Notes under the pieces: model-generated
What the model was told of the DNA's origin: nothing
The model's input: only the letters and a program-made list of their open reading frames with translations
Databases searched by the model: none
Made by a program: the position numbers and the translations under genes
Shown: positions 1 to 51,888 of the stretch, piece by piece
Numbering within the stretch: the stretch's first letter is position 1
Layout: each line of letters starts with the position of its first letter
NCBI RefSeq assembly: GCF_036971445.1
Contig: NC_091471.1
Coordinates: 151,528,001 to 151,592,000, forward strand
Direction of reading: 5' to 3'
Source of the DNA: Narcine bancroftii
Taxonomy: Eukaryota
DNA: 64,000 nucleotides

Positions 1-595
1 GGAAGAATTAAATCAGATACTAAATAAAATTACAAAAAATAACATACCAAAAAAACCCAGAGATATTTATTTTAAGTAACATAAGAAGTAAAGAATTAGG
101 CCTCAAATTGGATGAAGTGCAAAAAAAATTCATTATGATAGCCTTAGCGATAGCAAAAAAAATGTATAATATCAACTTTGAAAATGGAAGAGAGCATGAG
201 TATACAGCAATGGTACATGGAAATAAATAAATGTATTCCATTGGAAAAAAATAACATATAATTTTTAAAAAGTCACAATGTTTGAACAAAATGACCTCCA
301 TCCTCTAAAATGAGAATGAAAATTATAAGAAGACAAAACGACTAGATTCAGTGTGTAATAAATAGATGACGCATTTTTCTTGTTTATTTTCTTATTTTCC
401 TTTGTGTGAAGATATTGTTTTTATGGTTTTATTGTATTGTATATGTTGAATATTTATGGATTTTGGAGGGGGTGGGTAGAGGGGAGGGAGGGAAAGGGGG
501 AAAAAAGGGAGAAAAGACCACTGTAAATTTAATGAGAAATGTTTGTACATATTTTGGTTGATATGGTTAATAGTGTGAAAAAAATTATTAAAAAA
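1..595 (+). mobile_element. L1 (fish-type) 3' end: ORF2 C-terminus, 3' UTR and A-rich tail
   Basis: Translates with frameshifts to EELNQILNKITKNNIPK..MIALAIAKK..QQWYMEINKCIPLEK. Closely matches the minus-strand L1 at 32043-32648. G-rich 3' UTR ends in gtgtgaaaaaaa. Confidence 0.9.
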
Positions 596-649
596 TTATA
601 AGACTGTATTATGTATAGAGTCAAATACAAATAACAGTGTGTCTGAAAC

Positions 650-2895: not shown

Positions 2896-4303
2896 CTGTA
2901 AAAAGCAACTTGTTACAATATTCCCTTCTTTACTATCTGATATTTGTACAGTAAATATGCAGAGCAGTGGTCAAATGATGTTTGTTATAAAAAAAATTGC
3001 TCAAATAAATGTGTTTGTTTAATTTCCTCTCAATTTTCAGATATCAAAAGCACAAATTGAAAGGGTTTAAGCAGAAAATCTATTAGTAAAGAACTGATAT
3101 GTTAAAGGATTATGAAGTCGACAAATGAATTGATATTATTAAAGACCTCAGATTCTTTAGTCTCAGACATTCTTTAAAATGTTGAACTATAGTTTCATGG
3201 CAGTAGTACGTGCAGATTTCAGATGTTGCATTGTGTTATTTATGAACAGTACCTCTTAATATAAAAAATCTAGCACTCAGCTTCATCTCTTTGCATCACT
3301 TGCCCCTCATCATAATAGTGGCAACCTTCTACCTCCCACAGATAGGAGAGGTTTTCTGTATCATGCACAGCTTAATATTTTATGCAAAGAGTTTTCTTGG
3401 AAAATACATTTTTAAAATTTTTTCAAAGGTTTCAAGCTTAGGTAATATGGAAAAAGATAATACAATCAAAAATCCCTCATATTTTTTGAAAAAATCCGGA
3501 GTGTTTATCTGTGACATTACACAATAAAATTTCAGTCATGAAATAGCATTTTAATTAGGTCATTTTAAATTGGCTTGCAGAGAACACAGCTAATATCATC
3601 CACCACAATATCTTTTGCTGTAGCTGTGTTATTGATGTGTTACTTCAGAAAAGGCATTTCAGGGCCACGATCTGGGGAGGAACTTCACATCAGATCATCC
3701 TAGACTCTATCCCAGGCCTCAAAGCAGAAACTGAGATTGGCTCACATGGAGCTCTGGGCTCTTCAACCATCTTTGCAAGAATTGCTGGTGTATTTGCCTT
3801 GGCAGCACTCAGGGGTGATTGCTAGCAATGAGGTCAAGGGAATAAAAGTGGGTGGAAGCTGGGAGCTGGGAATAGGTGAGGTAGTTGATGGTGTTGCAAC
3901 AATTGTGAATGGATATTTGTCCTGAAGGGGAAAGCAATGATCCTACCAATAAACAGACCTCTTAATCACAATGGCAGTAGTAGTAACCAATATCGTAGTT
4001 TTTCCTATTAACCAACAAATAGTTTTGGTCTGATCATCTCATTGCATGCTACATCCTAAGTTTGTCTAAAACAGATCCTCGTGTAAACCTACATCTGGAC
4101 TTCTTAAGTTATCCCCAAAGGCAGACTTAAAGATTTGGGTATAAGCACAAGAGTATTAATCTGATGATGTTGATTTTGAAAGAGGTATTAATGTCTTAGT
4201 TAACAATAAACTGCTCAAGGAACTTAGCAGGGCGAGCAGCATCAACAAGGGTCAAGGAATTACGAACTTTTGGGTTGATATTACATCAGGACTGAGAACG
4301 GAG

Positions 4304-7188
4304 GGGGGGCATGGCAAAATGGCATAAGGATCAGACGTGCCTTCCAGTCCTCTCCTGAGTCTATCTTATTGTTTTGTCTAGAAATGCCTGTTAAAATTCT
4401 TTAAAAGTTTAGATAATTTCAGTGCTGTTAATTTAACTTATGATGGTACAATTGGTGGAAAAGAGCAAAAGAAAACGACAACAGATCATCAAAAAGCTAC
4501 ATTTTCCAAAAGTTCAAGTTTTGGAGCCTACCTACAGGAAAGACATCGGGACTCAGCTTGAAATGGATCTCAGGAGAGAGGTACAGTGTTCGGATGTAGA
4601 GCTCTATGTTACATCGGTAGAGCCCCCTAAAGAGGATGCTAAACAGCCTTTAGAACAAAGAGTTACTCAAAGGCATTTGTCAACTGTAGAGGTGGTGCTG
4701 CAAACTGCATCTCTTGAGATAAAAGAACCTATACAACTTGATGTACTGGGAGAACTTAATACATTTTGGACTGGGGAAAACCCTGACCAGCATCCTCCAG
4801 TTATTGCTGGAGAGGCTGTGGCTGGGGTTTCCACATGCAGTCATACTATAAGGAAGGCAACCAGAATGAAGGAAGCAACAGAAGATCCTTTGGTTATGCA
4901 GAAGAAGCAGGAATCTGTTGAGCCAAAATCTCTTCCAATTGAAAAGATTTTTGTGAATCTTGAATCTAAATTATCTTGTACAATGCAGGGATTATCCAAG
5001 ATTATGACTGAACTTGGTACTAGGTTTAATACTCTGGTGAAAATACATTCTCAACAGATGGCTGAGTTTGGAGCTTTTAAGCTTGAAGTGAGAGATCAAT
5101 TTAATTCGTGTGAAGAAGATATAGACGAAATACGGGATCAAGTTTTTGATGTGACCTAAATGGTCGAAGACTTACAAACTCAAAATAAAAATTTGGTGAA
5201 AAAGATTGATTATTTGGAAAACCAATCCAGATGGAACAATATAAAGATTATTGGTTTGCCGGAAGGTATGGAGGGACCAGAGCCAAGAAAATTTTTTACT
5301 GAATGGATTCCTCAGGTGCTGGGTCAAGAACATTTCCCGGAAGGTATAATACTGGAACGTGCTCACAGAGCCTTGCGTAGAAGACCTATTTCAGGTCAAA
5401 GTCCAAGACCTGTTTTGGTTTGTTGCTTGAATTATTACAACAGAGAAATAATTTTATGATTGGCTATTAGAAATGCACAACAGAGAAAATCACCCTTGAT
5501 GATTCAAAATAATCGAGTTTTCTTCTATGCGGATTTGAGTCAAGAAGTTATGTTCCAACGACGGGAATTCAATCCTGCTAAAGAGTTGTTGTGGAAGAAA
5601 GGTTACAAGGCAACCTTTAGATATCCAGCTGTTTTGAAGGTTTTTCAAGATGGTTACCAACCAAAGTTCTTTGATTCTCCAAAGGAAGCTATTGCATTTG
5701 CTCAAGAGCTGCCAATTACTCAGTTTCAACAGAGACATAGTCCGCCGTGATCTTTAAGGAGACAAGAGATGGAAGAAAAGAGCCGTGCTCCAAGAAGGAA
5801 TGGTTGTAATGGTGATTCGGCAGTTGGAGCTGATTAAAAGAAGAGTTGTCCTTTTTTTTTCTAATGTTTTTTTTTTTAAAAAGGGATATTAAATAATGAT
5901 GATGTTAGTTTAAGATGAAGTGTGAGTTGGGGGAGAGAACTGGACAGGCACTATTTCCTGAAAGTCATCTGCTACGTGTGAGTTATCTCACACCCATTTT
6001 TTTGGGAGTTACCGCATTGCGCGGTTAAGACTGGAGGGGGTATTTTTAACCTCCTACCCGTTTTTTTTCCTTTTTTTTGTATTATTAGATTAAAGAGTGA
6101 AGGGGTTTTTTTTGTTTAAATATTAAAAAAAAAGCATAAGAAAGTATTTGATTGTTTAAAAAACTAAAAATTGATGTGGTTTTTTTTGTAAAGTTTATTC
6201 AGTAGATAAGGAATATCTGAAATTTAAATGTGAATGGGATGGATAAGTTTTTTTAAATATATTTTTTCTTTAACTTTAAGGTGAAAGGAGTGGTAATTCT
6301 GGTGTATATTATTTTGCTATTTTAGTTATAGAACGAAGGGAATAATGGTGAAAGTTATAAATTGAATTGTACAATCCTAAATGAGGCTTGAATTTTGTTT
6401 GTGGTTTATGCTCCATTTGTTGAAGATATAGACTTCGTTGTAGATGTGTTTTTATTATTTGGATATCTGAATTTTAACGTAATGATTGGGGATATTTAAA
6501 TGTGGTATTGGAGCTTTCATTGGATAACTATTCAAGAGTAAAAGGGAAAAATGGTGGAAGAGTACTAAAATTGAATTGTACAATGCTTAATGAGGTTTGA
6601 ATTTTGTTTTTAGATGGTGGTTTATGTGACTAATATGATGATAGATGTGAAGTTAGTTGATATTTGAAGGTTTATCTCTATAGAGAAATTTTTTTTTCAT
6701 CTTTTTTTTCATGCTACAATTTTTTTTTAAGAATTGATTATTGTTTAAGAATTTTTGATAGATAATGTTACTAACTTTACCAATTTTTTATAGTAAGTTT
6801 GAGTTAAATATATGTTTCATCTTAACTCCGTTTGTTAAATTTATGCATTTAAGTTTGATTTAAATATGTTTTTTAAGTCTGATATCTTAGTATTAATTAC
6901 TTTTCTTTTTGTTAGTATTTTAATCGGTTATGTTTTTGTTTTTTTTGGAAGTGGGTTTTTTTCTCACATATATTATTAACTTTATTAATTCTTCACTATT
7001 TATTTTGGGGGGAAAGGGGGGGTTGGACTAATTTGAGTTGGGTTATTAATGTGTAATAATTATTGGGGAGGGTATAGTTTATTTAGATTAATGATACTGT
7101 ATTGTAATTTTATTATTTTATTCTTTTTTTTAAATGTAATCCTATACGTTATTCATGTTATAAAATCTTAATTAAAGTTTAAAAAAAA
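4304..7188 (+). mobile_element. ORF1-only L1 derivative (HAL1/half-L1-like), ~2.9 kb, complete from 5' G-run to A tail
   Basis: ~16-bp TSD aggactgagaa(c/t)ggag at 4288-4303 and 7188-7203. L1 ORF1 present. Degenerate endonuclease motifs at 6170-6745, no RT, A-tail at 7181-7188. Confidence 0.85.
4440..5750 (+). pseudogene. L1 ORF1p (coiled coil, RRM, CTD; Transposase_22-like), one frame with two nonsense codons
   Basis: Three consecutive same-frame ORFs: LENQSRWNNIKIIGLPEG, IILERAHRAL, FYADLS, FRYPAVLKV. Stops TAA at 5157-5159 and TGA at 5457-5459. Confidence 0.9.
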
Positions 7189-7544
7189 GGACTGAGAATG
7201 GAGAGAGATCTATCCACCTACCACTCACATCGCAACCCATTGCAATTACTATGATTCTATCTGCCCATCATTTCATTATTAACACCTTCCTTTAATTGCC
7301 TTGCAGGATCTCCAGCCATTGATAATTCTACATCACCTTCCTGTTTCTGTCTCCACCTCCATCTTCTCTTCTCTCTTTCCCCCCCTCCCACCCTCCCCCC
7401 CCCCACCCCATCCACCTGATTCCATCTACTTGTCAACCTTTCCACATTAGGTCTCACCTCTTATCTGCCTCTCCTGCCTCACATACACGTCTCAATAGTG
7501 TCTGTCTCACCTCCAAATCTTCAGTCAATGCAGGATTTCAACCC

Positions 7545-9170
7545 AAATAGTTTTTTAGATTATGTGCTACTTTCCTTCCTCAGAGAAAATAAAGGAAAAT
7601 AAACTATTTATTCTGGACCTCTAATTCGGAGCTGGTTGTAGATGTCAATGTGTGATCTGCAAACACTGAACCACATGTGATCGGGGTGGGGGGAGGGGTG
7701 CTTAAGAGAAAGGATGAATAGGTATTTGAGAAGATTGCCTCCATAGATGCCATCTGACCCATGGAGTTGCTCCAGTAATTTGTTTTCTTTTTAATTTGAG
7801 TAGATATTTCCACTCATTTGGACGAAAGGTTACTGTCTCAATTAATGGCTCAGATGGACAAAGAGAAACTGCTATTAAAAGTGAAGTGAATGTTTGGAAT
7901 TCTCCACTTTACAGGCCTTTGATCATTGATTCCATTTTATTTCCTCTAATCTCCCCAGTACATCCCATCAAGCCACTGAAATGGATCCCGAACGTTGTAT
8001 AACTGGACTAATGTGATGTGGACTTAACATTTTGTAGATCTCTGAAAGTTCATCTTATTGCTACTATTTATTGCTACAAATAAAGTTTCATTGTATCCAT
8101 ATTAATGTTAAATTGAGTATAAACAGAATTGTCTTTATTTTCTTAATCTTTGTTGTGATAAATATATCACATTTGAATGATATTGAACCACTATGTGGCA
8201 ATTCTTAAAAGAAAGAAATACTTGGTTGTTTGTTTGAGTTGGTATTTCCTTGCACAAAACTTTCTGGAGTACTTCTGAAATGAATGTTTTCTTTTTTTTT
8301 CTTGAGTAGTTTCCTTTGAATTTTGATTTGCTTCCATTCTGGTTTTGCAGCTTCTGAGATGGTCAATGAGTCATGGAGTCATAGAGTTGTACAGCGCAGA
8401 AACAGATTCTTCAGCTCAACTCATCAATGTCGACTAAGGGTCCTACCTGAGGCAGTCCAATTTGACTACATTTGGTCCATATCTCTCTGAAGCTTTCCAA
8501 TTCATGTCTTTTAAATATTGTGCCACTTACTCTAGCATCTGACCTGATATATCCACCACCCTTTGTTTGACCAAGTTTCCCCTATAGTTCTACATATATC
8601 TTTCCCCTCTCACCTTAAATCCATGCCTTCTAGTTTTAGAACCATCTCCTATATTGTTGGGAGCACATAGAAGACCAACATAAATACTAGATGGAATGAT
8701 CTGCCTCTGACTAAAAGAAAAGGGCACAATTTTAGAATGAAGTGGAAGAAGGTTAAGAGTGAATGGGAGGAAGTATTTTTTTCATCCAACAGGTGGAAGA
8801 AATCTGGAACACAGTGCCTGAAGGGGTGGAAGAGGCAGACTCTCACAACATTGAAAATATATCTGCATGGGCCATTAAAAATAGAGAAGATATGGTATAA
8901 TTGCTGATAGATGATATAGGTACATGATGGTTAGCAGGGTCATTGTAAGATAAATAATCTCTTTATGTGCTATATATAAATCTCCATAAATCCATGATCT
9001 TCTCATCCTTTCTTTTAAGCACCCCAACCCCCACCCTGCATATGGTTCAGTGTTTGCAGATCCCACATTGACATCTACAATCAGCTACGAATTAGATGAC
9101 CAGATTAAATAGTTTATTTTCCTTTATTTTCTCTGAGGAAGGAAAGCAGCATGTAATCTAAACAGACTTT
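7545..9170. repeat. Inverted repeat pair, ~180-bp arms (7545-7736 and 8997-9170)
   Basis: ttagattatgtgctactttccttcctcagagaaaataaaggaaaataaactattta.. is the reverse complement of ..taaatagtttattttcctttattttctctgaggaaggaaagcagcatgtaatctaa. Similarity continues through the arm. Confidence 0.9.
8370..8995. mobile_element. Two old CR1 3' fragments in opposite orientation (about 8370-8645 minus, 8670-8995 plus)
   Basis: CR1-type 3' motifs (catagagttgtacagc..; ..atctggaacacagtgcctgaagggg..). Heavily diverged. Confidence 0.55.
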
Positions 9171-9785
9171 CTCCACCATTTCCCCATATAGAGGCAATTT
9201 TTCATTTAAGTGCAATATTTGAAATCTGAAATGTATACTTATACTTTATTTATACTTCTGGGCTGCCCTGAAGAACACATTTGCAATTTAATGTTGGTTG
9301 ATGATTGAATGGGAGATCATATAACGACTTTCATTATGAAAAGTTTTGAGGAGGCTGCCATGATACAAGTCTGCGAGTGATTCACTTGAAAATAAATAAG
9401 TCAGGACATTTATCTCACATTATTGCATGTGATAAACATGTCAAGCGACCAGTTAAAATATTTATGACTCAAAGGATTATAATAATGCAATGATGCTCTG
9501 TAGATGAGACAATAACCTGTAAGAGGATAAATCACATAGTAATACACCACAAGCAAGCGTCCTGAAGAGATGACAACTCAGTGATGGATACCTTCCAGGA
9601 GAAGGCAAGACAGGAACCCAAATGATGTCTTCAGGTAGCATCAAAAACAGTGACAGCTAAATCTGAGTTGGACAGCCCTGGAACCCCAATGTTTGATTTT
9701 TGCTTCATTTACAGATAAGGATCAGTTACCATTAAAATGTTAGAACCACAAATAGGACCACATCACTGACAGAATATGAAGACAC

Positions 9786-10190
9786 TCTTTCTCTTTTCTT
9801 TCTTTTCTTTCTCTTTGGCTTGGCTCCGCGGACGAAGATTTATGGAGGGGTAATGTCCACGTCAGCTGCAGGCTCGTTTGTGGCTGACAAGTCCGATGCG
9901 GGACAGGCAGACACGGTTGCAGCGGTTGCAAGGGAAAATTGGTTGGTTGGGGTTGGGTGTTGGGTTTTCCTTCTTTGTCTTTTGTCAGTGAGGTGGGCTC
10001 TGCGGTCTTCTTCAAAGGAGGTTGCTGCCCACCGAACTGTAAGGCGCCAAGATGCACGGTTTGAGGCGATATCAGCCCACTGGCGATGGTCAATGTGGCA
10101 GGCACCAAGAGCTTTCTTTAGGCAGTCCTTGTACCTCTTCTTTGGTGCACCTCTGTCTCGGTGGCCAGTGGAGAGCTCGCCATATAACGC
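9786..10190 (-). mobile_element. RTE LINE 3' fragment (young)
   Basis: Near-identical to 35305-35686. Microsatellite-like GAAA tail. TSD gaagacac at 9778-9785 and 10191-10198. Confidence 0.95.
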
Positions 10191-10779
10191 GAAGACACAG
10201 TCCTGTATTAAATCACAAAATCTTACTTGGTTAGTCCTAAAATAATTACAATTTTGAATACAGAATCTATATCTTTAAATCCATTTTCCATTCTGGGTTT
10301 CATGGAGAAATGGTAAATATAACTGAGCACATCTCCCGTGATACTAAAGACAATTGACAGGATCCAGGACAAAGATACTCACTTGATTCTTCCAGCCTAG
10401 CTTGGAGCCTACTCCAGCACAATACCTGCCTGCACCGTGGGCTCAAGAGATGCAGCCACATGGTGCAGGACACATACAAGCAGAGGCTGAGGTGGGAGAC
10501 CCTGATAGGAAAGTCATTCATTATTCATATGAGATCATACGCAATCAGCTAACAACCTCAATCACCATTGCAAGGCTAAAAAGATGATTAAGTATTTCCC
10601 AATCAGAAACCATGGATGAACTGGGAATTCATCACACTGCTGTAGGCCAGGTTAGAGGCAGTCACATCAGGAGATCTTTCCGTCTACAAGAAATCCAAGT
10701 ACAATCCCTGAAAAGGAAACAGAGAAACCAAAAGATGGAAAAGTGACAAGGCGACATCAAAGACACACAGTGACTGTGA

Positions 10780-14833: not shown

Positions 14834-17406
14834 CTGCAGAAAATTAGAATCACATCACATGTTCAGTGAAGTGAAGTTTTTTTTTGAAGCATCAAAACTC
14901 ATTTTCTATCCATTAGAAAAAAAAGCCAAAGGTGGTCTTCATTTCTGTGAATGCAGCTTTCATTTTGGATTAAGCTGAGCCAATTAAACTCGCTCTCCAT
15001 TTTTACAGCTTTACCACAATGTTTAACTCAGGAAAAATGGTAAGAAAGTTACGGGTTTGGTTCTTGCTCTTCATTGACTTAACTGGTCATGGTTGAGATA
15101 ATGACAGATGGTCTCTATGTGGTCTTAGCTCCTGATACAGAGGTTTGCCAGAATAGCTATTTCTGGACACTGCCTGGGTACACTATTTGGGAAAGGTCCA
15201 TGTCTGGATGTTAATAGTGCATGAAGTCAGAGTAAACTGAGCCACCAACACTTATTCACTTGTCTATGACATTAAGACATATAAATGTGCTGAAGTTTAA
15301 AAGATTCTATTTTTGAGTCATTCAGAACCAACTAATATTAAATTTATTAATACAGATTCCCTGCATTAATCCAAGGTTTCAAAAGAGTTGCAGCTATGCA
15401 TATTAGAAACAGTACCACAAACTGCCCCTAGATTAGTCTGGATTTTAAAAAATATTTTATTAACACTTACTCTGTGCAAAAAACTTGCCTCACAGTTTGT
15501 AGCCAGTTACAAAATTGAAAAAAGATTCAATTAGAGAAATGATAAACCCATAATACAATTTATGATGGTTAAATTCCCCACTGCCGCCAACTCCTTCCCA
15601 CCTTAGAAACCCCAAAAGGAAAAGATGAAAAAAAAAGAAAAGAAAGCAAATGAGAAATAAAAGGAAAAAAAAAAGAAAATCAAGGAAAACAGAAAGAATT
15701 GCCAAGAAAGTGCCACTCACCACACGGATCTCCAATATATATTCTGTTTAATTCTTTGGAGAAGGTTAACACAAGTCGTTAAGATTTGAAAATCGTCTAC
15801 AAATTTATACCTCAAATTTGTAAATACTGGAGCAAAAATTGCAGAAATATTTCATATTTATTTCCTAAATTATAAGTAATCTTCACAAGGAGAACACAAC
15901 TATACATCTTGGCATTTGATTGTGCCATAGCTAAATGTGAATCAGATTTCCAAGTAACTGCTATATATGTACTTGCCACTGTTAGTGCTATTTTGGCAAA
16001 TTTTGTTTGGTATTTATATAATTTTAATTTAGGTCTTGTCCCTGAGATATCCCCCAATAAAAATAGTTCTGGATTTTTTGGAAACCTAATTCCTATAACC
16101 TGTTCTAAAATTAATTCCTAAATCTTCCCAAAAAGTCCTATCTGGGGACGTTATCAAGTCGAATGTATAAAGTACCTACCTCCTCACCATATGTAAAACA
16201 TTGAACTGATAAATCTGACTTCAACCTATTTAATTTCTGCAGCATGAGATACAATTGCTGTAAAAAATTGTATTGAACCATCCAGTATCTTACATTTATT
16301 GTATTTGTCATACTATCCCAACAAAAATCAGAACTATTTTGTTCATCAATTTTAACATTTAAATATGATTCCCATCTCTGTTTGGCTTTCTGAAACCCCT
16401 GTTTATGAGTTCTCATTTGAAGTAGGAGATACATGGCAGAAGTAAATTTCTTTATAGTTTGTTTTCGAACCAAAGTTTCTACATCACTTCACTTTAGTAA
16501 TAACATTGTTGGGCCTAATTTATACTTTAAATATGCTATTACTTGAAAATAACAAATGAGTGTGTTATTAAGTAGTCTATATATTTTTAATTTATCAAAT
16601 GACATAAAATGTCCTCCTTCATAACAATCTTCAATATGTCTGATCCCCTTATGAGACCAAATAACTAAGAACTGATTTCTAATCATAAAAGGAATATTTT
16701 TTTAAATCAAAGGTATTTTAGCTGATAGCATAACCCCCAATGCTCCAAATTCACCATTTATCTTTCCAAGTATTGATCATATGTTTTTACAGAGGGGCTC
16801 TTTGTCACCACATATTAATTTTAATTTCCCATTTGTATATAAAATCCTCTGCTATTCACTCTCCTATTTTCTCCAATTCTATTTTTACCCATGCAGGTCT
16901 CTCTCCTTCCTCAAAAAAGAAGAAAGTAATGCCATTTGTGCTGCTTGATAATTTTTTAAAATTTGGAAGTTGTGATCTTGCTAATTCATATTTCCAAGTT
17001 AATTTTCTGATGGACACCCTGCATAGCTTAGCCTTCCAAATAAATTTTCTTACATATTTATTTAATTCCTGAATTGTGATATTGGCAGTGCTTGTGAATG
17101 ATATTGTATTCTTGTGAAAATATTCATCTTAATACAATTAACTCTACCCACTAATGTTATTGGCAAAGGCATCCACCTATTCAAATTTTCTTCAACCTTT
17201 TAAAGTAAAATTTATATAAATTATTTAAATTTTTATTTATACGCATCCCTAAATAATTTAACCCATTATTGGCAATTAAAATTGATAACTTTGACTTTTA
17301 ACATAATCCCTCCCATAAGAGGAATAATTTTGATTTTGTTCCAATTTATTTTATAGCCCCAAACTTTCCTATATTCATCTAATTTTGAGTGCAACTTTTG
17401 TACAAA

Positions 17407-18122
17407 AGCTGCTTTCAGGTGGAATCACCTGGAGAATGTGGTTCCATGGCAGCTGTGGGTAAGGCAGCTGTGGGTATCTGCAAAGGGAATTTCAGACAGC
17501 ACCGCTGATGCCAATGTTCTGCCACCTGAAATGTCCAAAGTGGGGAGAGATTCCACAGGGCAAATGCCAGCTCCTGAGTTGGGGCATCCGTCTGACAGCT
17601 CACCTCCCCGCTGCTGACAGCCCTTTCCTTGCTGCCTTTCAACCCCCTCTTCGCAGACTGACAACCCCCCACCCCCCAGCATGGGACTATGGGGCTGGAG
17701 CAGCCAGCATGGGACATCCAGGCTAGGGAAGCTAGTGCAGGGTGTCAGTGCTGGGGTGGCTGGCACGGGATGTCAGCCCTGACATCCTGCGCCACCTGCC
17801 CCAGCCCTGACATCCCGTGCTGGCCACCCCAGCACTGACATCTTGCGCCAGCCATTCCAGCCCCATAGTCCTGTGCTGGGGGGCTGTCAGACAGTGGGCA
17901 CCTTTAGTCTGCTAGGAACCTGAAAGCTGTGAGCCACTTTGCCTGGTGCTGCTTTCAGGTGCAACAGGGGATTCTCCAAGATGGAGAATATACGTACCCA
18001 AGGAGGGTTAGGTAAGTGCTCCTCCTGGCCAGGTTCTCCACTTTCAGGTGGCCACCCAATAGCTTCATTGGGGTAGAATAGGCGGCTTTACAGTCTGGTA
18101 TTCTGGCCACCTGAAAGCAGCT
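17407..18122. mobile_element. GC-rich non-autonomous DNA transposon, PIF/Harbinger-like MITE, inserted in the L1
   Basis: Perfect 16-bp TIR agctgctttcaggtgg / ccacctgaaagcagct. 3-bp flanking repeat aaa. L1 RT sequence resumes across it. Internally palindromic. Confidence 0.75.
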
Positions 18123-19622
18123 AAAGTTGCTGGTTCTGTCAATTATATCAAAACAAATAAAGTAATTTTATTTTCCCCTTGATTAACCCTAAATCCTTTA
18201 ATATGAAGATCATACTGAATTGCTTCTCCAAGCAGTTTTATAGCTAAAATATATAAAGCTGGAGATAATGGACGTCCTTTTCTACTCGACCTAGTTAGCT
18301 GGAATGGTGCAGAAGCTTGTCCATTTGTTACAACTTTGGCTTTTGCCTCATAATATTATGTTCTAATCGAATTTAGAAAATCTGTCCTAACCCAAATCTT
18401 TCCAGCACTTTAAATAAAAAAAAACCTATTCAAGTCTATCAAACATTTATTTCTGTATCTTAAGCCATCCAAACACTCAAACCCCCTCTCTTTTGTGCCA
18501 AATGATTTACACTAATTAATCTAGTTACATTGGCAGCAGATTGTTTCTTTTTAACACAGCCTGTTTGATCAATATTTATTAATTTTGGTAAAAATTTTGT
18601 CAATCTATTTGCTAAAATTTTTGCTATAATCTTATAATCTGAATTTAACAATGAAATAGGACTATAGGATGATGGTTTCAATGGGTCTCTATCATTTTTT
18701 GGTATAACAGTAATGAATGTAGTTGAAAAAGATTCTGGGAGAGTATGCATTTCCAATGTCTGATCTAATACCTCCATAAAAAGAGGAATTAATAAATCTT
18801 TAAATTCTTTGTAAACTTTAAGTGGGAAACCATCTTCTCCCAGAGACTTATTACTTTGCAGTAAACAAAATGCTTCCCTCACCTCATTTTGAGTGAAAGG
18901 ACCATTCAATTCTACTTGTCTTTCTAACTTTAACCTTGGAAGACATATGTGTGAAAAAAATCCTCTATTTTATTATCATCACTTTGTGATTCAGATTGAT
19001 ATAGTTTAGAATGAAATTGTTTAAAAATCTCATTAATTTCTTGAGGTTTATAGCATTCAAATCTATTTTTACTGCAGTAATAATTTTTGAGACCTGCTTT
19101 GCTTTAAACTGCCAAGAAACAACCTTATGAGCTCTTTAACCTAGCTCATAATACCTGTTTAGTTCTTATTATTGCCTTTTCTGTTTTTATATGTTTGCAA
19201 TATATTATACTGATTTTAAAAAATTAATAAGTTGCCTATGTTTATCCTCAGTCTTTTTTGAAATATAGTATACCATTTCCCAATTGTTCTAGCTCTCTTA
19301 TAAAATCCTTCTTAATCTTAGAAGTATAACTTACAATTTGTCCTCTTAAATATGCTTTCAGAGTATCCCATATAATAAATTAACTCAACGTGAATTAGTC
19401 TCACAATTTTTTCAAATTTGCCTTCTAATAAAAATCACAAAAATCTGGTCTTTTTTTAACAGCAAAGAGTTGAATTTCCATCTATAAACTGATCATCAGG
19501 CATTGTTACAGTCATTAATAAAGGTGAATGATCTGATTAAATTCTCACTACAGCTTCAATAATCCTACCTTGTAAATATGCTGACATTAAAAATCAATTC
19601 TAAAATAAGAGTTATGTCTATT

Positions 19623-19764
19623 NNNNNNNNNNNNNNNNNNNNNNNNNNNNNNNNNNNNNNNNNNNNNNNNNNNNNNNNNNNNNNNNNNNNNNNNNNNNNN
19701 NNNNNNNNNNNNNNNNNNNNNNNNNNNNNNNNNNNNNNNNNNNNNNNNNNNNNNNNNNNNNNNN
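19623..19764. other. Assembly gap (N run)
   Basis: Run of n. Confidence 1.
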
Positions 19765-21086
19765 ACTTAATTCAGTTCTATCATTCATGCCAAAAAGGCT
19801 TTTGCCCTTATCACTACTCTAGTTGACCGATCTTGTTGGATCCAAACAAAAATTAAAATCGCCATCTACTGAAGTATTTTCATAAGCATCTGCTAATTTG
19901 AGAATTGTTTCTTGAATAAATTTCTCATCATTTACATATGACACATACAAATTCATAAGGGTCCATAGTTCTGAATAAATCTGACAATGTATTATTACAT
20001 TTCTTCCTGCTATATCTGTTACTACATTCTGTATTTTAACTGAAAGATTTTTCCTCATCAAAATTGCCACTTGCCTTGGCTTTGAATTAAATAAAGAAAC
20101 TATAACATGTCCCACCCAATCTCTTTCATTTTTGATGTTATTTTTCAATTAAGTGAGTTTCTTGCAAAATGGCTATGACAGCTCCCATTGTCTTAATGTG
20201 TGTCAATACCCACTTTCTCTTCACTCTCCCATTTAACCTATTAACATTAAAACTTATAAATTTCACTCATCCCTATTAAAAAAATATCACTGTATTCTTA
20301 TATTCCCAGATCTTCTCTCCCCATGTGACTCCTCCAATAATTTGATCAATTATTATCTTTCATGTTTGAGCACATCTTCCCCAGCCATCCAGGTAGAAAA
20401 AAAAGAATAGATATATAAGAAGAATATGACACACATAGCAATCAAAATTAAACAAACTACAAAAATTTCCCATATTAGCATTATATAAATAATGCACAAC
20501 ACTACCCCCCTCCATTATATAGGTTGTGCCAAATGCCACAAAAACACACGTGACTTGATAATAGTCAGACATGCTATACCCCTAATACCCCCAGATATTT
20601 ACCAGATATTTGTTAATCATTCTTCTTATATAAAAATAATGTTTTAATTAAATCAAAGGAACAACAATATATTAATTTAGTCACTCCGACAATTGGGCAT
20701 TCGTCAATGACTCCACAAACTCTTCTGCCCCGCCACTATCTGAAAAGAATTTTCTTCCACTGTCTGGCAAGGAGATCTTTAAAGTGGCTGGATGATGCAG
20801 TATAAATCTATATCCTTTTTGCCAAAGAGGATTTATAACCTTTGCTTCAGTAATGCTACGCTTACGTCTGGATAGATTAAAACTCTACATACTTGATATC
20901 AAGTGGACCACTTGCTTTTTCTCCTTTGCCCACCGCAGTCATTATCTTCTCTTTATCATGATATCTCAAGCATTTTATCAGAATAGAGTGTGGCTTTTGA
21001 TCTGGAAATGGCTGTGGTCTGAGAGCTTTGTATGTTCTCTCAATTTCAATAGGTTGTTCCAACTTTTCCTCTCCGCTTCAGGTATC

Positions 21087-21660
21087 TGACATGCCAGTTG
21101 ATTAAGTAGACAAAGACGATGTGGTTAAAAAATAATCATGGCTTTTATTAGCAGAAGCTCATGGTACAATAATGAAAGACAATAGATGCATACACAGTTA
21201 TACCCAAGGGGAGCATCCTTAACAGTAGAGATAATGCACAGCCAATGTTAGTACAGCAAGGCTCGCCAGAGGGGAGACAGGCAACTTGGCAGACAATCAC
21301 CACAGTCTCCCCCCGGCAGAAGAAGGGTTAAAATCAAAAGGACAGCTGCTAGGAAAGACTAAAGCATGGATACCATGTTTGACATTGAGAATATTCTAAC
21401 AGCCAAGATACTCCAGTATCTAGCAAGTAATGAGATGTTTTATGAATATGTCAGCTATCAGATTGTTTATGAATTCTGGTGCTTCTTCTCAAAACAGGAT
21501 GCTCCTTTGCAACCTACAGTTCCTGGGTCTGTAGTGTCGGAAGGACTGACTTCTGGACCCACTTCACAATTGCCAGCTTGAGGCAGAGAAGCCTCAGCTT
21601 GGCCTGCATCAAGACATCCCTTAGTCCAAAGAGATGGTCTTTAGAATGTGCAACATTCTA
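21087..21660 (-). mobile_element. Gypsy 3' fragment: end of pol, PPT and 3' LTR (21087-21304)
   Basis: TG..CA-bounded ~218 bp with AATAAA on the minus strand. Polypurine ggggggagac directly upstream. PVLRRSTRI-type pol C-terminus. Confidence 0.7.
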
Positions 21661-21788
21661 CTGAATGGTCAACTATATTCTGATATCCTGGATGAAGAGC
21701 TCAAGTCCTGAAACACTGATTATGTATCTTTTTCTTTGCTGTATAAATAAAACTGTTTGACCTGTTGAGTTTCTCCAGCATTGTGTTG

Positions 21789-22740
21789 GCTCTTCAGCGC
21801 TTGACGTCCTGTTTTGCAGAAACTGCCAAAATGTTTGGCCTGGAAGTCAGCCTGAAGAAAACTGAGGTCCTCCATCAGCCAGCTCCCCACCATGACTACC
21901 ATTCCCCCCACATCTCCATCGGGCACACAAAACTCAAAACGGTCAACCAGTTTACCTATCTCGGCTGCACCATTTCATCAGATGCAAGGATCGACAACGA
22001 GATAGACAACAGACTCGCCAAGGCAAATAGCACCTTTGGAAGACTACACAAAAGAGTCTGGAAAAACAACCAACTGAGAAACCTCACAAAGATAAGCGTA
22101 TACAGAGCCGTTGTCATACCCACACTCCTGTTCGGTTTCGAATCATGGGTCCTCTACCGGCATCACCTACGGCTCCTAGAACGCTTCCACCAGCGTTGTC
22201 TCCGCTCCATCCTCAACATTCATTGGAGCGACTTCATCCCTAACATCAAAGTACTCGAGATGGCAGAGGCCGACAGCATCGAATCCACGCTGTTGAAGAT
22301 CCAACTGCGCTGGGTAGGTCACGTCTCCAGAATGGAGGACCATCACCTTCCCAAGATCGTGTTATATGGTGAGCTCTCCACTGGCCATCGTGTCAGAGGT
22401 GCACCAAAGAAGAGGTACAAGGACTACCTAAAGAAATCTCTTGGTGCCTGCCACATTGACCACCGCCAGTAGGCTGACATCGCCTCAAACCATGCATCTT
22501 GATGCCTCACAGTTCGGCGGGCAGCAATCTCCTTTGAAGAAGACTACAGAGCCCACCTCACTGACAAAAGACAAAGGAGGAAAAACCCAACACCCAACCC
22601 CAACCAACAAATTTTCCCCTGCAACCTCTGCAACCTTGCCTGCCTGCCCCGCATTGGACTTGTCAGCCACAAACGAGCTGCAGCTGACATGGACATTTAC
22701 CCCTCCATAAATCTTCGTCCGCGAAGCCAAGCCAAAGAAG
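21789..22740 (+). mobile_element. RTE LINE, 5'-truncated (end of RT to tail)
   Basis: ORF ALQRLTSCFAETAKMFGLEVSLKKTEV..FTYLG..QLRWVGHV with a stop at 22470. Tail gaagccaagccaaagaag. Confidence 0.95.
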
Positions 22741-30722: not shown

Positions 30723-31794
30723 CTCTTTCTTTTGAAGGCAGTCTTAAATTAAGAAATTGTCCATTCAGGCCAATGGTATGAGAAGAGAGTAATTATTATT
30801 TGAATTTTTCTACTGAAGTGGATTAACTGCTAAGTATATTTAAGAGAGAGAGCGTTAGATATTTCGATATTGAAGTAATTATTGATTTGAATGAATTGTC
30901 TATTATCATGTGTACCAAGATGCAGTGAAATGTGTTGTTTTGAAAGCTATCCAGGCAGCAGTAGCGTAATAATAAACCAAAAGTACAGGGTGAGGTGTTG
31001 CATTACATCTAAGAGTGCATGTTATAGTGTCACTATGACAAAAGGGTAAGATTTGTAGAAAAATACAGTTAAACAGCACAGACACATCATCTTTTTAACA
31101 ATGAGAGGTCCATTCAAGTGTCTGATAAGAACAGGAAAGAAACAAGCTTATGCATCTTGATGTTGAGGGTGGGGGAGGGGTGTTACAGAAGGGAGTGTGA
31201 AATGTGGGGTCAGTTGTATTGAAGTAAAAGATTGAGGACTTTGCTTTGAATGGGGGCAGGTAGGAGAGGCTGCTTCAGTTTCCCATGCTCTTACCAGAAT
31301 GCCTGTTGGGAAGCCTGCGTCTGAAAATGACTGTGAAATATTCATTGATGTTTTCCGCAGATGACCACCTCTAATGCCATGATGTACAAATGTCCATCAG
31401 AAAATAGAAGGACCTGCTTCAATATTCCTTCATGGTCAGATCCATTGATATCACCCCACTCCCACAAGAAGCAGTTCCAATTGGAGATAATCCTTTAACC
31501 ATTCACACTGTGGCAGACGATGTTGATTACTTGCTGCTTTCCACATAACTAGTGAAATATACAGGCCCATAAACATTCTAAGCCTGTAGAGTATATTACA
31601 CCACAGTCCTGGACAAAATTATAACAAGCCCCTAATGCATGATCATTATGAGGGGGTTTTCTGTCTAATTTTTAAGTGTTGCCATCAAAATATTTTTAAC
31701 CTATTTTATCTTTGTTTTCTTTTCATTTTTGAATTGAAATTCAAGTTCATTGTGATAACCCAGGATAACTTTTTTTTCAAAACGTTTGCTTCTT

Positions 31795-33860
31795 TTTTTA
31801 ATTTTTCACACTATGATCCATATTAATCAAAATACACACAATTTCCCTCTTGAGTATACACAGTGTCATTTTCTCCCCTTTTCCCCCCTCCCTTCCCTCC
31901 CTCCTTCCCACCCCCCTCCAAACCCATTAAACATTCAACATATACAATACAATAACCTATTAAACAATGTCATCACACAATGAAAATAAGAAAATTGTGT
32001 CATCTACTTTTACACACTGGGTCAGTTCATTTCATCTTTTTCTCATTCTATCATTTTAGGGGGTGGAGGTTGGCCGTCTCTGTTGTGTTCCATGTATGGT
32101 TCCCAAATTTGTTCAAATAATGTGACTTTATTTTTTAAATTATATGTTTTTTTTTCCAATGGAATACATGTATTCATTTCCATGTACCATTGTTGTACTC
32201 TCAGGCCCTCTTTTGATTTCCAAGTTGGCATTATACATTTTTTTGCTACAGCTAAGGCTATCATAATAAATCTTTTATACGGTTCATCCAGCTTAAGGCC
32301 TAATTCTTTACTTCATATATAACTTAGAAGAAAGATCTCTGGATTTTTTGGTATGTTGCTTTTTGTGATTTTATTTAATATCTTATTTAGATCTTCCCAA
32401 AACTTTTTCACTTTCTCACATGTCCAAATTGCATGTACTATTGTTCCCATTTCCTTCTTACAGCGAAAACATCTATCTGATTCTGTTGGATCCCATTTAT
32501 TTAACTTTTGGGGCGTGATATATAGCCTGTGTAACCAACTATATTGTATCATGTGTAACCTGGTATTTATTATATTTCTCATAATTCCAGAGCATAACTT
32601 TTCCCATATTTTATTTTTTATCTTTATGTTTAGATCTTTTTTTCCCACATTTGTTTGGGTTTATAGCTTATTTCATCATTTTCTTTCTCTTTCAGATTGA
32701 TGTACATGTGTTTTATAAATCTTTTAATTATCAGTGTGTCTGCAATCACATATTCCAAGCTACTACCTTCTGGTAATCTCAGTCTGCTTCCCAATTTGTC
32801 CTTTAAGTAGGTTTTCAGTTGGTGGTATGCAAACATTGTACCATATTTGTACATCATTTGTTCAAATGATAATAAATTATTTCCCAAAAAACAACTTTCT
32901 ATTCTTTTAATTCCTTTTCTCTCCCTTTCTCTAAAGGAAAGGTTATCTATTGTGAAAGGGATTAGTTGATTTTTCATCAATAATAATCTATCTCCCTCAC
33001 TGTTCGCTTTAGCAATAGAACCATTGGCAGAATTGATAAGAGCAGAAAATAAAATAAAAGGGATAAAAATAAAAGAGAAGGAATATAAAATCAGTCTATT
33101 TCAGATGATGTCATAGTATACTTAACAGAACCAGAATTATCAATAAAAAAATACATAAGAAATTGAAGGAATATGGAGAAATATTGGGGTACAAGATCAA
33201 CGCAAATAAAAGTGAAGCAATGCCAATGAATAATGTGGAATGCACAAAGTTTAAAAAAGAATCACCATTTAAATGGCAAACACAAGCAATCTGATACCTA
33301 GGTATTAGACTAGATAATAATCCAGGCCAGCTATACAAATTAAATTATCAGCCATTAATGAAGAAATTACAAGATGACTTAGAACATTGGAAAGATTTAC
33401 CACTAACACTGATAGGAATGGTAAATTGCATTAAAATGAACATCTTCCCCAGGATACGATACCTATTTCAATCATTACCAATTCCCTTAACAGAGAAATT
33501 CTTCAATGACCTAAAGAGAATAATAAGGAAATTCTTATGGAAAGGGCAGAAACCAAGGATGGCACTAGATAAATTAACAGAATGGTACTAACAAGATGGT
33601 TTGCAGCTACCAAACTTTAAAAATTATTATAGAGCAGCACAATTAAGATATCTATCAGATTTTTATCAAACAAGGGAAAAAACAGATTGGACCAAGATAG
33701 AGCTAGATAAAATAGGGGAGAAGGTACCAGAACATACACATTATAAGTGGGATGAAAAACTGGTGCAATATAGAAGTTCACCAGTACTGCACCATCTGCT
33801 CAACATTTGGAAGAAGATTCACATAGAAAGGAAAAATAAATAAATTACCAACTACCAAAA
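31795..33860 (-). mobile_element. L1 with a 5' inversion: 3' part on minus (31795-32987), upstream part on plus (32988-33860)
   Basis: Plus part LSPSLFALAIEPL...NYQLPK joins minus part LLLMKNQLIPF with no gap. ~17-bp TSD at 31778-31794 and 33856-33872 (2 mismatches). Confidence 0.92.
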
Positions 33861-34595: not shown

Positions 34596-35949
34596 CAGTG
34601 GTTCTCAACTTTTATCTTTCCACTCACATACCACTTTAAGTAATTCCTATGCCATCGGTTCTCTGTGATTAGTTAGTTGGTATGTGGGTGGAAAGAAAAA
34701 GTTTGAAAACCATTGTTTTAATTCAGAGCCAGCTCTTCAGCGCTTGACGTCCTGCTTTGCGGAAACTGCCAAAATGTTTGGCCTGGAAGTCAGCCTGAAG
34801 AAAACTGAGGTCCTCCATCAGCCAGCTCCCCACCATGACTACCAGCCCCCCCACATCTCCATCGGGCACACAAAACTCAAAACGGTCAACCAGTTTACCT
34901 ATCTCGGCTGCACCATTTCATCAGATGCAAGGATCGACAATGAGATAGACAACAGACTCGCCAAGGCAAATAGCGCCTTTGGAAGACTACACAAAAGAGT
35001 CTGGAAAAACAACCAACTGAAAAACCTCACAAAGTTAAGCGTATACAGAGCCGTTGTCATACCCACACTCCTGTTCGGCTCCGAATCATGGGTCCTCTAC
35101 CGGCACCACCTACGGCTCCTAGAAAGCTTCCACCAGCGTTGTCTCCGCTCCATCTTCAACATCCATTGGAGCGCTCACACCCCTAACGTCGAGGTACTCG
35201 AGATGGCAGAGGTCGACAGCATCGAGTCCACGCTGCTGAAGATCCAGCTGCGCTGGATGGGTCACGTCTCCAGAATGGAGGACCATCGCCTTCCCAAGAT
35301 CGTATTATATGGCGAGCTCTCCACTGGCCACCGTGACAGAGGTGCACCAAAGAAAAGGTACAAGGACTGCCTAAAGAAATCTCTTGGTGCCTGCCACATT
35401 GACCACCGCCAGTGGGCTGATAACGCCTCAAACCGTGCATCTTGGCGCCTCACAGTTTGGCGGGCAGCAGCCTCCTTTGAAGAAGACCGCAGAGCCTACC
35501 TCACTGACAAAAGGCAAAGGAGGAAAAACCCAACACCCAACCCCAACCAACCAATTTTCCCTTGCAACCGCTGCAATCGTGCCTGCCTGTCCCGCATCGG
35601 ACTGGTCAGCCACAAACGAGCCTGCAGCTGACGTGGACTTTTTTACCCCCTCCATAAATCTTCGTCCGCGAAGCCAAGCCAAAGAAATGTGGGTGGAAAG
35701 AAAAAGTTTGAAAACCATTGTTTTAATTCTACCTAATTGATTCGTTATGTGCACGGTTTCATAACTCCAAAGGAAATGGGCCAATGACAATTTTTCTCAA
35801 GCAAAATATTTCAGTAACAATTGGGTCTCAACCTTCCCTTTTCCTTCACTTACCATCTTAAGCAATCTCTTACTAATCACAGAGCACCAATGGCCTAGGG
35901 ATTACTTAAAGTGGTAAGTGAGTGGAAAGAAAATGGTTGAAAACCACTG
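34596..35949. mobile_element. hAT-Charlie MITE interrupted by an RTE
   Basis: cagtggttc..aaccactg termini. Imperfect 8-bp TSD tatcaaac/aattaaac. Confidence 0.88.
34725..35686 (+). mobile_element. RTE LINE, 5'-truncated, with an uninterrupted ~300-codon ORF ending at 35631
   Basis: RT thumb region through a C-terminal CxxC..H..C motif (CNRCNRACLSRIGLVSHKRAC). Identical 43-bp flanking duplication. Confidence 0.95.
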
Positions 35950-41405: not shown

Positions 41406-42083
41406 AGCAGATAATAGAAATAGAAATCTGGGTGAACAAAGTTTCTCACACCCAGGCATGACAAGGTAAGATGAAATGGCTGCATTGTTAATTCAGTTAC
41501 AGGCTCTCTCTTCTTTGCCCAAGAGAAAGATTCCAGCTTTTGATGGTGACCCACTTCAATTCCAAGTGTTTATGGAAAACTTTGAATGCAGTATTGAAAT
41601 TAAGAGCCAAAACTTAGAGGATTGTCTATATTATTCGGAACAGTTCATAAGAGGACAACCACAAGATCTTGTAAAGAGTTGGCATCATATGACTCTGAAT
41701 AAAGAATATCAAAAGGCTAAGTTCTTACTTAAGAAGCTTTTGGGTAATTTGCATAATATTTCTACAGCTTATGTACCGAAGGTTCTTTTATGGTTATCAA
41801 TAAGACTGGATGACACAAAGGGTTTACAAGTTTATGCTCTCTTGCTTAAAGAATGTTGCAAGTCATGATGGAGATCAACCATCTACGAGAGCTTGACATA
41901 TCTACTAATATGCTAATCATTATAGATAAATTACCCTACCTGATGAAAGAACCATGGAAAAGTTCAGTTGTTGAATACCAGAAAATAAACCAAGTGACAG
42001 CTACTTTTGGGCATTTGGTGGAGTTCACTGAAGGGCAAGCGGACGTTGTCACAGATCCAGTGTAGGGAATAATCAAGGGCAGT

Positions 42084-42392
42084 ACATTGACCACTGCCAG
42101 TGGGGTGATCTCGCCTCAAACCATGCATCTTGGCGCCTCACAGTTCGGCGGGCAGCAACCTCCTTTGAAGAAGACCGCAGAGCCCACCTCACTGACAAAA
42201 GACAAAGGAGGAAAAACCCAACACCTAACCCCAACCCACCAATTTTCCCTTGCAACCGCTGCAACCGTGTCTGCCTGTCCCGCATTGGACTTGTCAGCCA
42301 CAAACGAGCCTGCAGCTGATGTGGACATTACCCCTCCATTAATCTTCATCCGCGAAGCCAAGCCAAAGAAAGAAAGAAAAGAAGAAGAAAGA
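42084..42392 (+). mobile_element. RTE 3' fragment inserted in BEL gag
   Basis: Near-identical to 35396-35686, with a GAA/GAAA tail. Confidence 0.95.
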
Positions 42393-50060: not shown

Positions 50061-51573
50061 AAACATATGGTTAAGTTCCAAACTCAAAGTGACATATTTA
50101 GTGAGTTTCTATGTGTGTGTTGATACAGAGTGAGGTGAAAAGTATGAGAGACTTCAGCAGGTACACTGTCACAAGCCACCAGTATGCTGATTGACTGCAT
50201 CACAGGCTGGTTTGGCAATTCAAATGCCCAGAATTTCAGAAAGCTGCAGACAGTACAAACATAACTTGCTCCGTCACAGGTTCTGACCTTCCATCCATTA
50301 GAGATATCTATGTGAGGTGCTACCTCAAGATGACAGTCAACATCATAAGGACCCCCATTACCCTGGTCACAACCTTTTCTCGCTATTGTCTTTGGGCAGA
50401 AGGTACAGAAGGATGAAAACCATCATCATCCAAATCTTGTTCAGACTTTGCACTGCAAATAAATTGTACTTCCCTGCTTATAAAATATCAGGGAAGTAAA
50501 TCAGAGATTTATTCTATTTTCATTACATTGTGATTTAGATTTCATAGTGTTTTAAGGATTGTAATTACTAAAATAGAATTACACTCCCAGGTTTGAACAT
50601 GCTAAGGATGTATGACTGGCAGTGATTCAGAATTGTACGAGGACTAAACAGATAGTAACATTAAAAAAAAGTTTAAATCCTGGGGTTTGAGAATTCAGCT
50701 CCAGTTTTTAGAGTTATGAGGCAACTAAAAAGGCAAGTTTGGGAACCACAAATGAGGCAGAAGGAGGCCAAAGGAGAGAACATCGGGGTAGTTTTCGGGA
50801 TTGTGCATCCATTTCACTGCTTATGCAGGACTTCTATTGGGCACCCAGTGTACGGCCCTGAGGTTCTCAATACCATCATTAATGCAATTACTCCACTTTG
50901 AGTGGTCAATTTTTCTCAGAGGGTAAATGATGTTGCATTTGTTCAAGGAAACTTTGAGGACATCGAGAAGTTATTTTCTCTCCAGATAATCTCCTCCTAC
51001 AACTGACCTTGGGCAGGCAAACTATGTATGTGCTGCTCTTTAACATGTTCAATATCTACTTAAAGCTAACTGCAACATGATTTGCCTTCAATAATTAGCA
51101 GGGACCTATTTTTTAAAGAAGGTGGCACTGGTTTATCTTAGTGCCACTGTTTAAAGTCAGCGAACATTATTTAAAGGGGAGATGCACTGTGACTGGTGTG
51201 GATAGTGAAATGATCTTAAAAATGATGCTAACTTGGTAGAAAACATGACATTGTTCAGACATGGTATTATTTCACACTAGATATAAACAGAAATGGTCAA
51301 CCAGAGATAATAATATGAGGATGTATCATTTTTGCACCAGGAATCATTTCACGAATAATAATGGTAGTTTGAATCATCAAATTAGAATTCTGACACATCC
51401 TCGGAAAAAAAACCAAAATATATTAGCACAAATTATTATAATTTATACCAGTAACCTGTTCATTAAAATCTAATATCCGTAAGCAGGCCAAGTAGAATAT
51501 GCTCCCCATTGTGATTTGATTCAAAAAGGTATCTAAATAATCATCACTTAACATGTTAACACTTTTAGAGTGT

Positions 51574-51888
51574 TTCTTTGGCTTGGCTTCGCGCACGAAG
51601 ATTTATGGAGGGGGTAAATGTCCACGTCAGCTGCAGGCTCGTTTGTGGCTGACAAGTCCGATGTGGGACAGGCAGACACGGTTGCAGCGGTTGGCGTTGG
51701 GTGTTGGGTTTTTCCTCCTTTGCCTTTTGTCAGTGAGGTGGGCTCTGCGGTCTTCTTCAAAGGAGGTTGCTGCCCGCCAAACTGTGAGGCGCCAAGATGC
51801 ACGGTTTGAGGTGATATCAGCCCACTGGCGGTGGTCAATGTGGCAGGCACCAAGAGATTTCTTTAGGCAGTCCTTGTACCTTTTCTTT
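51574..51888 (-). mobile_element. RTE 3' fragment with a small internal deletion
   Basis: Matches the other RTE copies. TSD tttag(a/t)gtgt at 51564-51573 and 51886-51895. Confidence 0.93.

Follow-up and report, generated by a model that had tools for sequence, protein, structure and literature searches.

A multi-copy, ORF1-only L1 derivative, very probably of the HAL1 type, in the electric ray Narcine bancroftii

The window analysed here is a stretch of 64,000 nucleotides from Narcine bancroftii (NCBI RefSeq assembly GCF_036971445.1, contig NC_091471.1, positions 151,528,001 to 151,592,000, forward strand), near the start of which a 2.9-kb element is bracketed by a 16-bp direct repeat with one mismatch (4288-4303 and 7188-7203). 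This repeat is the target-site duplication (TSD) that had been proposed on first inspection of the letters; a repeat of more than 12 bp with one mismatch occurred in none of 1500 random pairs of 30-bp windows placed at the same spacing. The 5' G-run and the A tail noted at the same time can be read directly at 4304-4309 and 7181-7188. The target site differs from the mammalian L1 consensus TT/AAAA, and no second copy of the element was found inside the 64-kb window. Public contigs of four runs (X1, X5, X6 and X11) were mapped over 3700-7800, and the following layout was established.

4288-4303, plus strand: 5' copy of the TSD; an X1 contig (3700-4323, depth 10.6, 0 differences) crosses the junction.
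4304-4439, plus strand: 5' UTR of 136 bp, beginning with six G (4304-4309); seen in the sequence and in the rise of depth in bin 4248-4384.
4440-5837, plus strand: L1 ORF1 of 465 codons plus stop, with stops at codons 240, 340 and 437 in the window copy.
4497-4931, plus strand: long N-terminal extension of ORF1p, residues 20-164, predicted to be disordered (pLDDT <50).
4935-5225, plus strand: coiled coil, residues 166-262 (model helices 166-238 and 242-262).
5226-5714, plus strand: RRM and C-terminal domain (CTD) of ORF1p, from profile search, structure model and Foldseek.
5838-6080, plus strand: T-rich inter-ORF spacer, with a possibly structured core at 5920-6065 (fold test).
6132-6540 (3' end at ~6540), plus strand: endonuclease (EN) vestige, part 1, EN residues 20-155 of reference P0027 (profile scores).
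6542-6626, plus strand: old internal duplication of 6336-6410, 85 bp, 80% alike, common to other copies.
6632-6747, plus strand: EN vestige, part 2, EN residues 168-206, up to a RIDY-like motif (score 34.1, shuffle maximum 26.2 in 40 shuffles).
6748-7180, plus strand: T-rich 3' region, containing two G tracts (7007-7022, 7065-7072) and ATTAAA (7171-7176).
7181-7188, plus strand: A tail of eight A, the last of which is common to the TSD; five X5 contigs exit the stretch at 7188.
7188-7203, plus strand: 3' copy of the TSD; an X1 contig (7151-7385, depth 12.2, 0 differences) crosses the junction.

The length of ORF1 differs from that first given. It had been described as a frame of 437 codons with only two nonsense changes, and this was mistaken, as the family ORF1 has ~465 codons (4440-5837, 1,398 bp) and the window copy carries three nonsense changes. 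At the three stops (5157, 5457 and 5748), nearly all contig depth shows a sense codon, and codon 437, like the other two, is a stop in the window copy only, another letter being found in 14,863 of 14,863 depth in X1, 211.5 of 211.5 in X5 and 366 of 366 in X6; the frame is therefore read through to 5837. The relatives P0016 and P0019 have no stop at the matching places. When the frame, read as X at its stops, was used to look for relatives, 14 were found, the best being Narcine bancroftii gene models of 89-93% identity, followed by matches of 53% and 49%. The models in the 89-93% class sit on three chromosome-sized contigs (376, 494 and 108 Mb) and are 87-97% identical depending on the region. 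A Pfam search of ORF1 gave no match to an L1 family, and a profile search (E 2e-9) and the structure model (Foldseek E 2e-10, ~20% identity) both pointed to human L1 ORF1p. By the profile search and the structure model, ORF1 is of the L1 type, with coiled coil, RRM and CTD.

The region N-terminal to the coiled coil had also been singled out as long and atypical. Its length is real, with 260 residues before the RRM motif as compared with 128-151 in six relatives of roughly 300 residues, but it is less special than it seemed, being predicted as disordered and having counterparts of 187-235 residues in four other ray ORF1 models. No domain was found in the extension, and an Atlas search with it returned nothing at or above 0.9, the best score (0.82) being at the chance level; in the model it looks like a disordered extension. 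The ORF1p N-terminal region is described as extremely variable in length in the part of the zebrafish L1 literature consulted (PMC5381506). The long N-terminus is common to three ray subfamilies, each with several, mostly truncated, gene models, that together form one clade (support 100/100) and between which identity is 30-41% in the N-terminus (residues 1-165), 37-43% in the coiled coil and 73-82% in the RRM and CTD. Faster evolution of ORF1 in the family was considered and dropped, the stem branch of 0.76 in the ORF1 tree being equalled by that of another ray clade (0.77). A metagenome scan yielded 45 loci, all distant (best 46%) and none belonging to the element's family.

Many RefSeq models of ray host genes carry an L1 ORF1 under names such as GALNT6-like, FAM122B, TEFM, GPR139, STXBP6, ADAT1 and TADA1 (P0006, P0009, P0021 and P0043 in Narcine; P0011, P0041 and P0042 in other rays), and these are either exonised L1 or annotation artefacts. 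A separate set of stingray proteins, encoded outside the window and known from protein records, consists of P0044 from Hemitrygon akajei (XP_072890665.1) and P0184 and P0185 from Hypanus sabinus (XP_059827035.1 and XP_059827034.1), in which a TRIM N-terminus with RING and B-box leads into an almost complete L1 ORF1p, the fusion point being the same and the identity between the two genera 95%. The stingray proteins are a candidate domesticated fusion, or else a shared exonised L1 or an annotation artefact, and by analogy could possibly act as an anti-L1 factor in the manner of TRIMCyp; a literature search returned no report of a TRIM-ORF1p fusion.

The ruined endonuclease remnant announced by the sequence-only reading is present downstream of the spacer, and is bigger than first described. 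It was missed by Pfam and by a sequence search of the PDB, and was found at 26 bits with a profile built from eight related ORF2 proteins. With frameshift-aware scoring, EN residues 20-155 reach 84.5, as against a maximum of 34.0 in 40 block shuffles and 26.0 on the reverse strand, and the whole vestige extends over residues 20-206, split by the 85-bp duplication (6336-6410 / 6542-6626). Compared with intact EN, 56 of 168 residues are identical (33%). The linker, RT and C-terminal parts of the profile score at shuffle level in the element (21.6, 26.4 and 23.4, respectively), which bears out the earlier statement that no RT is present, and the element is thus not an autonomous L1, an intact ORF2 with EN, RT and C-terminal domain being absent. 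When the 3' half was compared with the window by tblastn at permissive settings, only low-complexity noise resulted. By eye, two X1 loose ends (before 6626 and before 6825) resemble less decayed forms of the EN helix before the DIW motif and of the post-EN motif, which suggests, as a lead only, sister elements in which the same vestige reaches ~6830.

The spacer core (5920-6065) has a fold z of -2.64, with one of 200 shuffles as good, and a search of Rfam returned no family for the spacer, apart from one chance match. Loose ends show that a diverged relative also has 5962-6006 of the spacer, so that the core is common to this relative although no ORF2 follows, and it may be a kept RNA signal. 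In an ordinary relative, locus L001, ORF1 is followed by the spacer and then by a normal EN start. The junction between the ORF2 vestige and the 3' UTR falls somewhere within 6748-7180. The 3' end shares a layout of T-rich sequence, G tract and A tail with three other L1-like copies in the window, while its sequence likeness to those three 3' ends is within the block-shuffle level; both internal deletion and premature polyadenylation would consequently fit. The T-rich 3' region also holds a second short internal duplication (6795-6830 / 6851-6885), and X5 variants lack ~100 bp of it (6867/6872 joined to 6970).

Part of the element is present in 11 of the 15 runs listed, from five studies; no RNA run is named among these holders, though X5 may be one. 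In X1, summed contig depth lies between 27,000 and 94,000 in every one of the 22 bins that span 4248-7261, as against 10.6 in the three outer bins of the left flank. Summed contig depth is not equal to copy number, and X1 is possibly the window's own source run; with this reservation the lowest listed place (5,833 over a flank of 10.6) suggests at least several hundred copies, and single X6 contigs reach depths of 328-505. Depth is flat across the element, the 5' end being as deep as the 3' end, and is ~11 in the flanks. Five X5 contigs leave the element at 7188 into mixed sequence (agreement 0.55), as expected of other insertion sites, and no empty-site joint was found in the four runs mapped. 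The element family is multi-copy and dispersed; a single-copy structure, which would have spoken against a family that retrotransposes as a unit, is incompatible with the X1 depth and with ORF1 models on three contigs. The presence of ORF1 in several Narcine bancroftii RefSeq gene models would also accord with a host gene domesticated from L1 ORF1 (like L1TD1), the mRNA of which was retrocopied repeatedly, or with a segmental repeat at the DNA level. This is considered very improbable, as depth drops at the TSD edges to single-copy X1 flanks, the X5 flanks at 7188 are mixed, the unit retains an L1-sized 5' UTR, a spacer and EN, and there are three subfamilies with several, mostly truncated, gene models each.

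The ruined EN recurs in other runs, as illustrated by contigs of X5 (6270-6594, 4 differences), X6 (6305-6653, 5 differences) and X11 (6286-6596, 4 differences) of 311-349 bp, of which that from X6, at depth 328, covers the internal duplication. Overlapping X5 contigs carry the sequence on as far as 6840, and in one X5 contig position 6867 is followed directly by 6970, RT being absent from the joint. In X11 (organism D) the majority-type contigs reach a depth of only 4-8 and could come from trace DNA or a low-copy family. None of the contigs listed runs the full length of the element or, in its reference form, connects 6840 with 7017; the listing gave 24 of 751 loose ends along with 40 of 162 difference rows. 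The RT and C-terminal scores together with the deep X5, X6 and X11 contigs indicate a family without functional ORF2, beside which a rare longer form with RT is possible. The ruined EN is thus the family norm, whereas the ORF1 stops are private to the window copy. An explanation to which we give almost no weight is that of a single ordinary L1 copy whose RT was lost and which degenerated once inserted. Big deletions are frequent in old L1 copies as a matter of general knowledge, but deep contigs from other runs show the same ruined EN and duplication at 4-5 differences, ORF1 is ~3% from the majority where EN is 33% identical to intact ENs, and the decay is strand-asymmetric (see below). A post-insertion deletion in an L1 with intact ORF2 fails for the same reason of a shared ruined EN, and the proposal of a HAL1-like family still bearing a recognisable ORF2 vestige is supported by this shared EN and by the private stops.

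In X1, 98 places at most differ from the window copy, or ~3.4% of the element, and the window copy is a dead insertion of full length that has diverged ~3% from the family majority. Its listed changes within ORF1 (24 rows) comprise 18 replacements and 6 silent changes and look neutral, as for post-insertion decay. Since the copy is ~3.4% from the majority and the vestige shares only 56 of 168 residues with intact EN, EN died long before the window insertion; the duplication is likewise old, its halves being 80% alike as against a copy divergence of ~3.4%. That ORF1 is far better kept than the ORF2 remnant, as first observed, is borne out by the same figures.

Decay of the vestige was scored at 67 C and G sites, all of them codon positions that a conserved residue determines, the ancestral state at these sites being inferred from L1s only 33% identical. 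C was kept at 5 of 24 sites and G at 33 of 43, with C>T at 12 of 24 and G>A at 6 of 43 (p = 0.003). A silent genomic copy is expected to decay strand-symmetrically, and the dead L1 at 15.4-21.3 kb, given the same treatment as a control, did so (5/24 vs 5/42; 5/55 vs 9/80). The asymmetry in the vestige would thus point to changes acquired while successive masters were transcribed or reverse-transcribed. Candidate causes of C>T are deamination of the RNA, deamination of the non-template strand in the course of transcription, and RT error. APOBEC3-type editing of first-strand cDNA gives G>A on the element's sense strand; it was rejected as the source of the bias, as the vestige shows C>T.

In ORF1, C is kept at 12 of 16 conserved sites as compared with 5 of 24 in EN (p = 0.001). 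It makes up 190 of 932 letters at codon positions 1-2 and 13 of 168 at fourfold sites, the latter equalling the vestige (45 of 765, p = 0.38). Retention at codon positions 1-2 and at conserved sites indirectly indicates long purifying selection on ORF1, and together with the private stops these tests show indirectly that ORF1 was kept open by selection in the replicating lineage. The idea that ORF2 degenerated in the course of many replication cycles, with ORF1 under selection throughout, accordingly gains support from the asymmetric loss of C in EN and from the C's kept in ORF1. A recent chimera, in which a template switch newly brought the ORF1 of an autonomous L1 onto an aged non-coding 3' half, would explain how an intact ORF1 can stand next to a ruined EN with no long period of selection, ORF1 being open because young. 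L1 5' parts are known to be exchanged, with UTR replacement, according to the portion of PMC5753468 that bears on it, and the 24 of 751 loose ends listed leave some room for such a joint. The reading is nonetheless improbable, as ORF1, spacer and EN stand in native order, as in L001, ORF1 is no deeper in contigs than the 3' half, and the fourfold sites of ORF1 carry the skew of the vestige (T 82, A 43, G 30, C 13) and not that seen in the other L1 within the window (A 26, T 23, G 4, C 4).

Taken together, the element is very probably a non-autonomous, ORF1-only L1 derivative of the HAL1 type that arose in an electric-ray lineage. A fish-type L1 would have lost all of ORF2 behind the EN domain, presumably by an internal deletion that joined it to the 3' UTR. 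The shortened RNA, transcribed from its own 5' UTR by a putative internal promoter, would have encoded its own ORF1p and, as the TSD, A tail and missing RT suggest, would have been reverse-transcribed and inserted in trans by the ORF2p of an autonomous L1. The useless EN may then have drifted over many cycles to the C-poor, T-rich make-up of the element's silent sites, while ORF1 would have stayed open as each master copy needed its own ORF1p, presumably in cis.

Mammalian HAL1 (half-L1) elements were reportedly described by Smit in 1999 and by Bao and Jurka in 2010. In the parts of the literature consulted, HAL1 is presented as a non-autonomous L1 derivative coding ORF1p only, with several origins in mammals (PMC5753468, PMC13756887), and the ORF1 of guinea pig HAL1 as open for 29-44 Myr (PMC3627910). 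On that description, the ray element resembles mammalian HAL1 in being L1-derived, in encoding ORF1p only, in its copy number, TSD and A tail and in an ORF1 that was open for long. It differs in its cartilaginous-fish host, in a parent that is a fish-type L1 (short 5' UTR, spacer), and in keeping ~0.6 kb of recognisable EN with strand-biased decay. The nearest relatives of its ORF1 are ray and fish proteins, and no descent from mammalian L1, as in HAL1, HAL1B and HAL1M8, was found; with only ~20% identity to human ORF1p, this indicates an origin independent of mammalian HAL1. As far as the available part of PMC5786205 goes, HeT-A (Jockey clade) and Ag-Sponge (CR1 clade) are also non-autonomous LINEs with ORF1 present, and the ray element is like them an ORF1-only LINE derivative needing an autonomous partner, whereas they belong to other LINE clades, HeT-A being telomeric, and the ray element is of the L1 clade and dispersed. 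With autonomous fish-type L1 (P0027, P0029, L001 and the dead copy at 15.4-21.3 kb), it shares the ORF1p fold, the size of the 5' UTR, a T-rich spacer, EN and a T-rich 3' end, but it is without RT or C-terminal domain, its EN is ruined in the family majority, and its N-terminus is ~110-130 residues longer than in the relatives of roughly 300 residues. For zebrafish, an ORF1 of 780-1,059 bp is given, as compared with 1,398 bp here, and for fish L1 5' UTRs of 113-267 bp, in the sections of PMC5381506 consulted.

A literature search found HAL1 for mammals only and none for sharks, rays or fish, and a second search on Narcine repeats found no report of the element's family, although a Repbase or Dfam entry may exist in either case. 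HAL1 in sharks or rays is not named in the accessible portions of PMC8535693, PMC4161310, PMC13343379, PMC5381506, PMC7140322, 10.1101/050880 and 10.1101/2025.06.08.657570. The HAL1-type kind itself is already known; what is new is the host group, the high copy number and the built-in neutral passenger. The half-L1 way of life is thus not peculiar to mammals, having also arisen and been strongly amplified in a cartilaginous fish. The EN vestige, whose ancestry is known, travels as a neutral passenger in the RNA that also carries a selected gene, and this pairing with ORF1 lets the mutation spectrum of L1 replication be measured apart from genomic decay. On the part of PMC7140322 consulted, singleton (post-insertion) mutations indicate that selection is what mainly maintains L1 base composition, with the causes of mutational bias left open, and the internal branches of the ray family would bear directly on that question. 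In this family, nature also provides a test of why ORF1p is required in cis. More tentatively, and with the balance of evidence still leaning the other way, the three long-N-terminus ray subfamilies might together constitute an ancient ORF2-less L1 lineage that sustains itself, the first beyond the mammals, in which the EN passenger would record a sense-strand C-to-T bias of the L1 replication cycle that explains the C-poor ray L1s. Such a bias would stem from deamination of the RNA or of the non-template strand, on the strand opposite to that edited by APOBEC3-type enzymes.

The window contains a number of other retroelements. The dead L1 used as a control is a decayed, near full-length copy on the minus strand (15400-21300; ORF1 scrap, EN, RT and 3' UTR). 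It contains a GC-rich insert (near 17500-18300) and is interrupted by an N gap (19623-19764). Another L1-like family is represented by two 3' ends, at 1-600 (plus strand) and 31790-33100 (minus strand), that are 74% alike and have a long G/A tract ~120 bp upstream of the tail. Fragments of BEL/Pao retrotransposons (DUF1759, Peptidase_A17) occur at 41470-41868 and 44046-44468. Finally, an RT-bearing LINE family, which we take to be RTE-like by its motifs, is represented by five fragments (9785-10192, 21747-22739, 34669-35687, 42084-42393 and 51573-51892) that are 86-94% alike and have C-rich silent sites (46%), unlike the L1s of the window.
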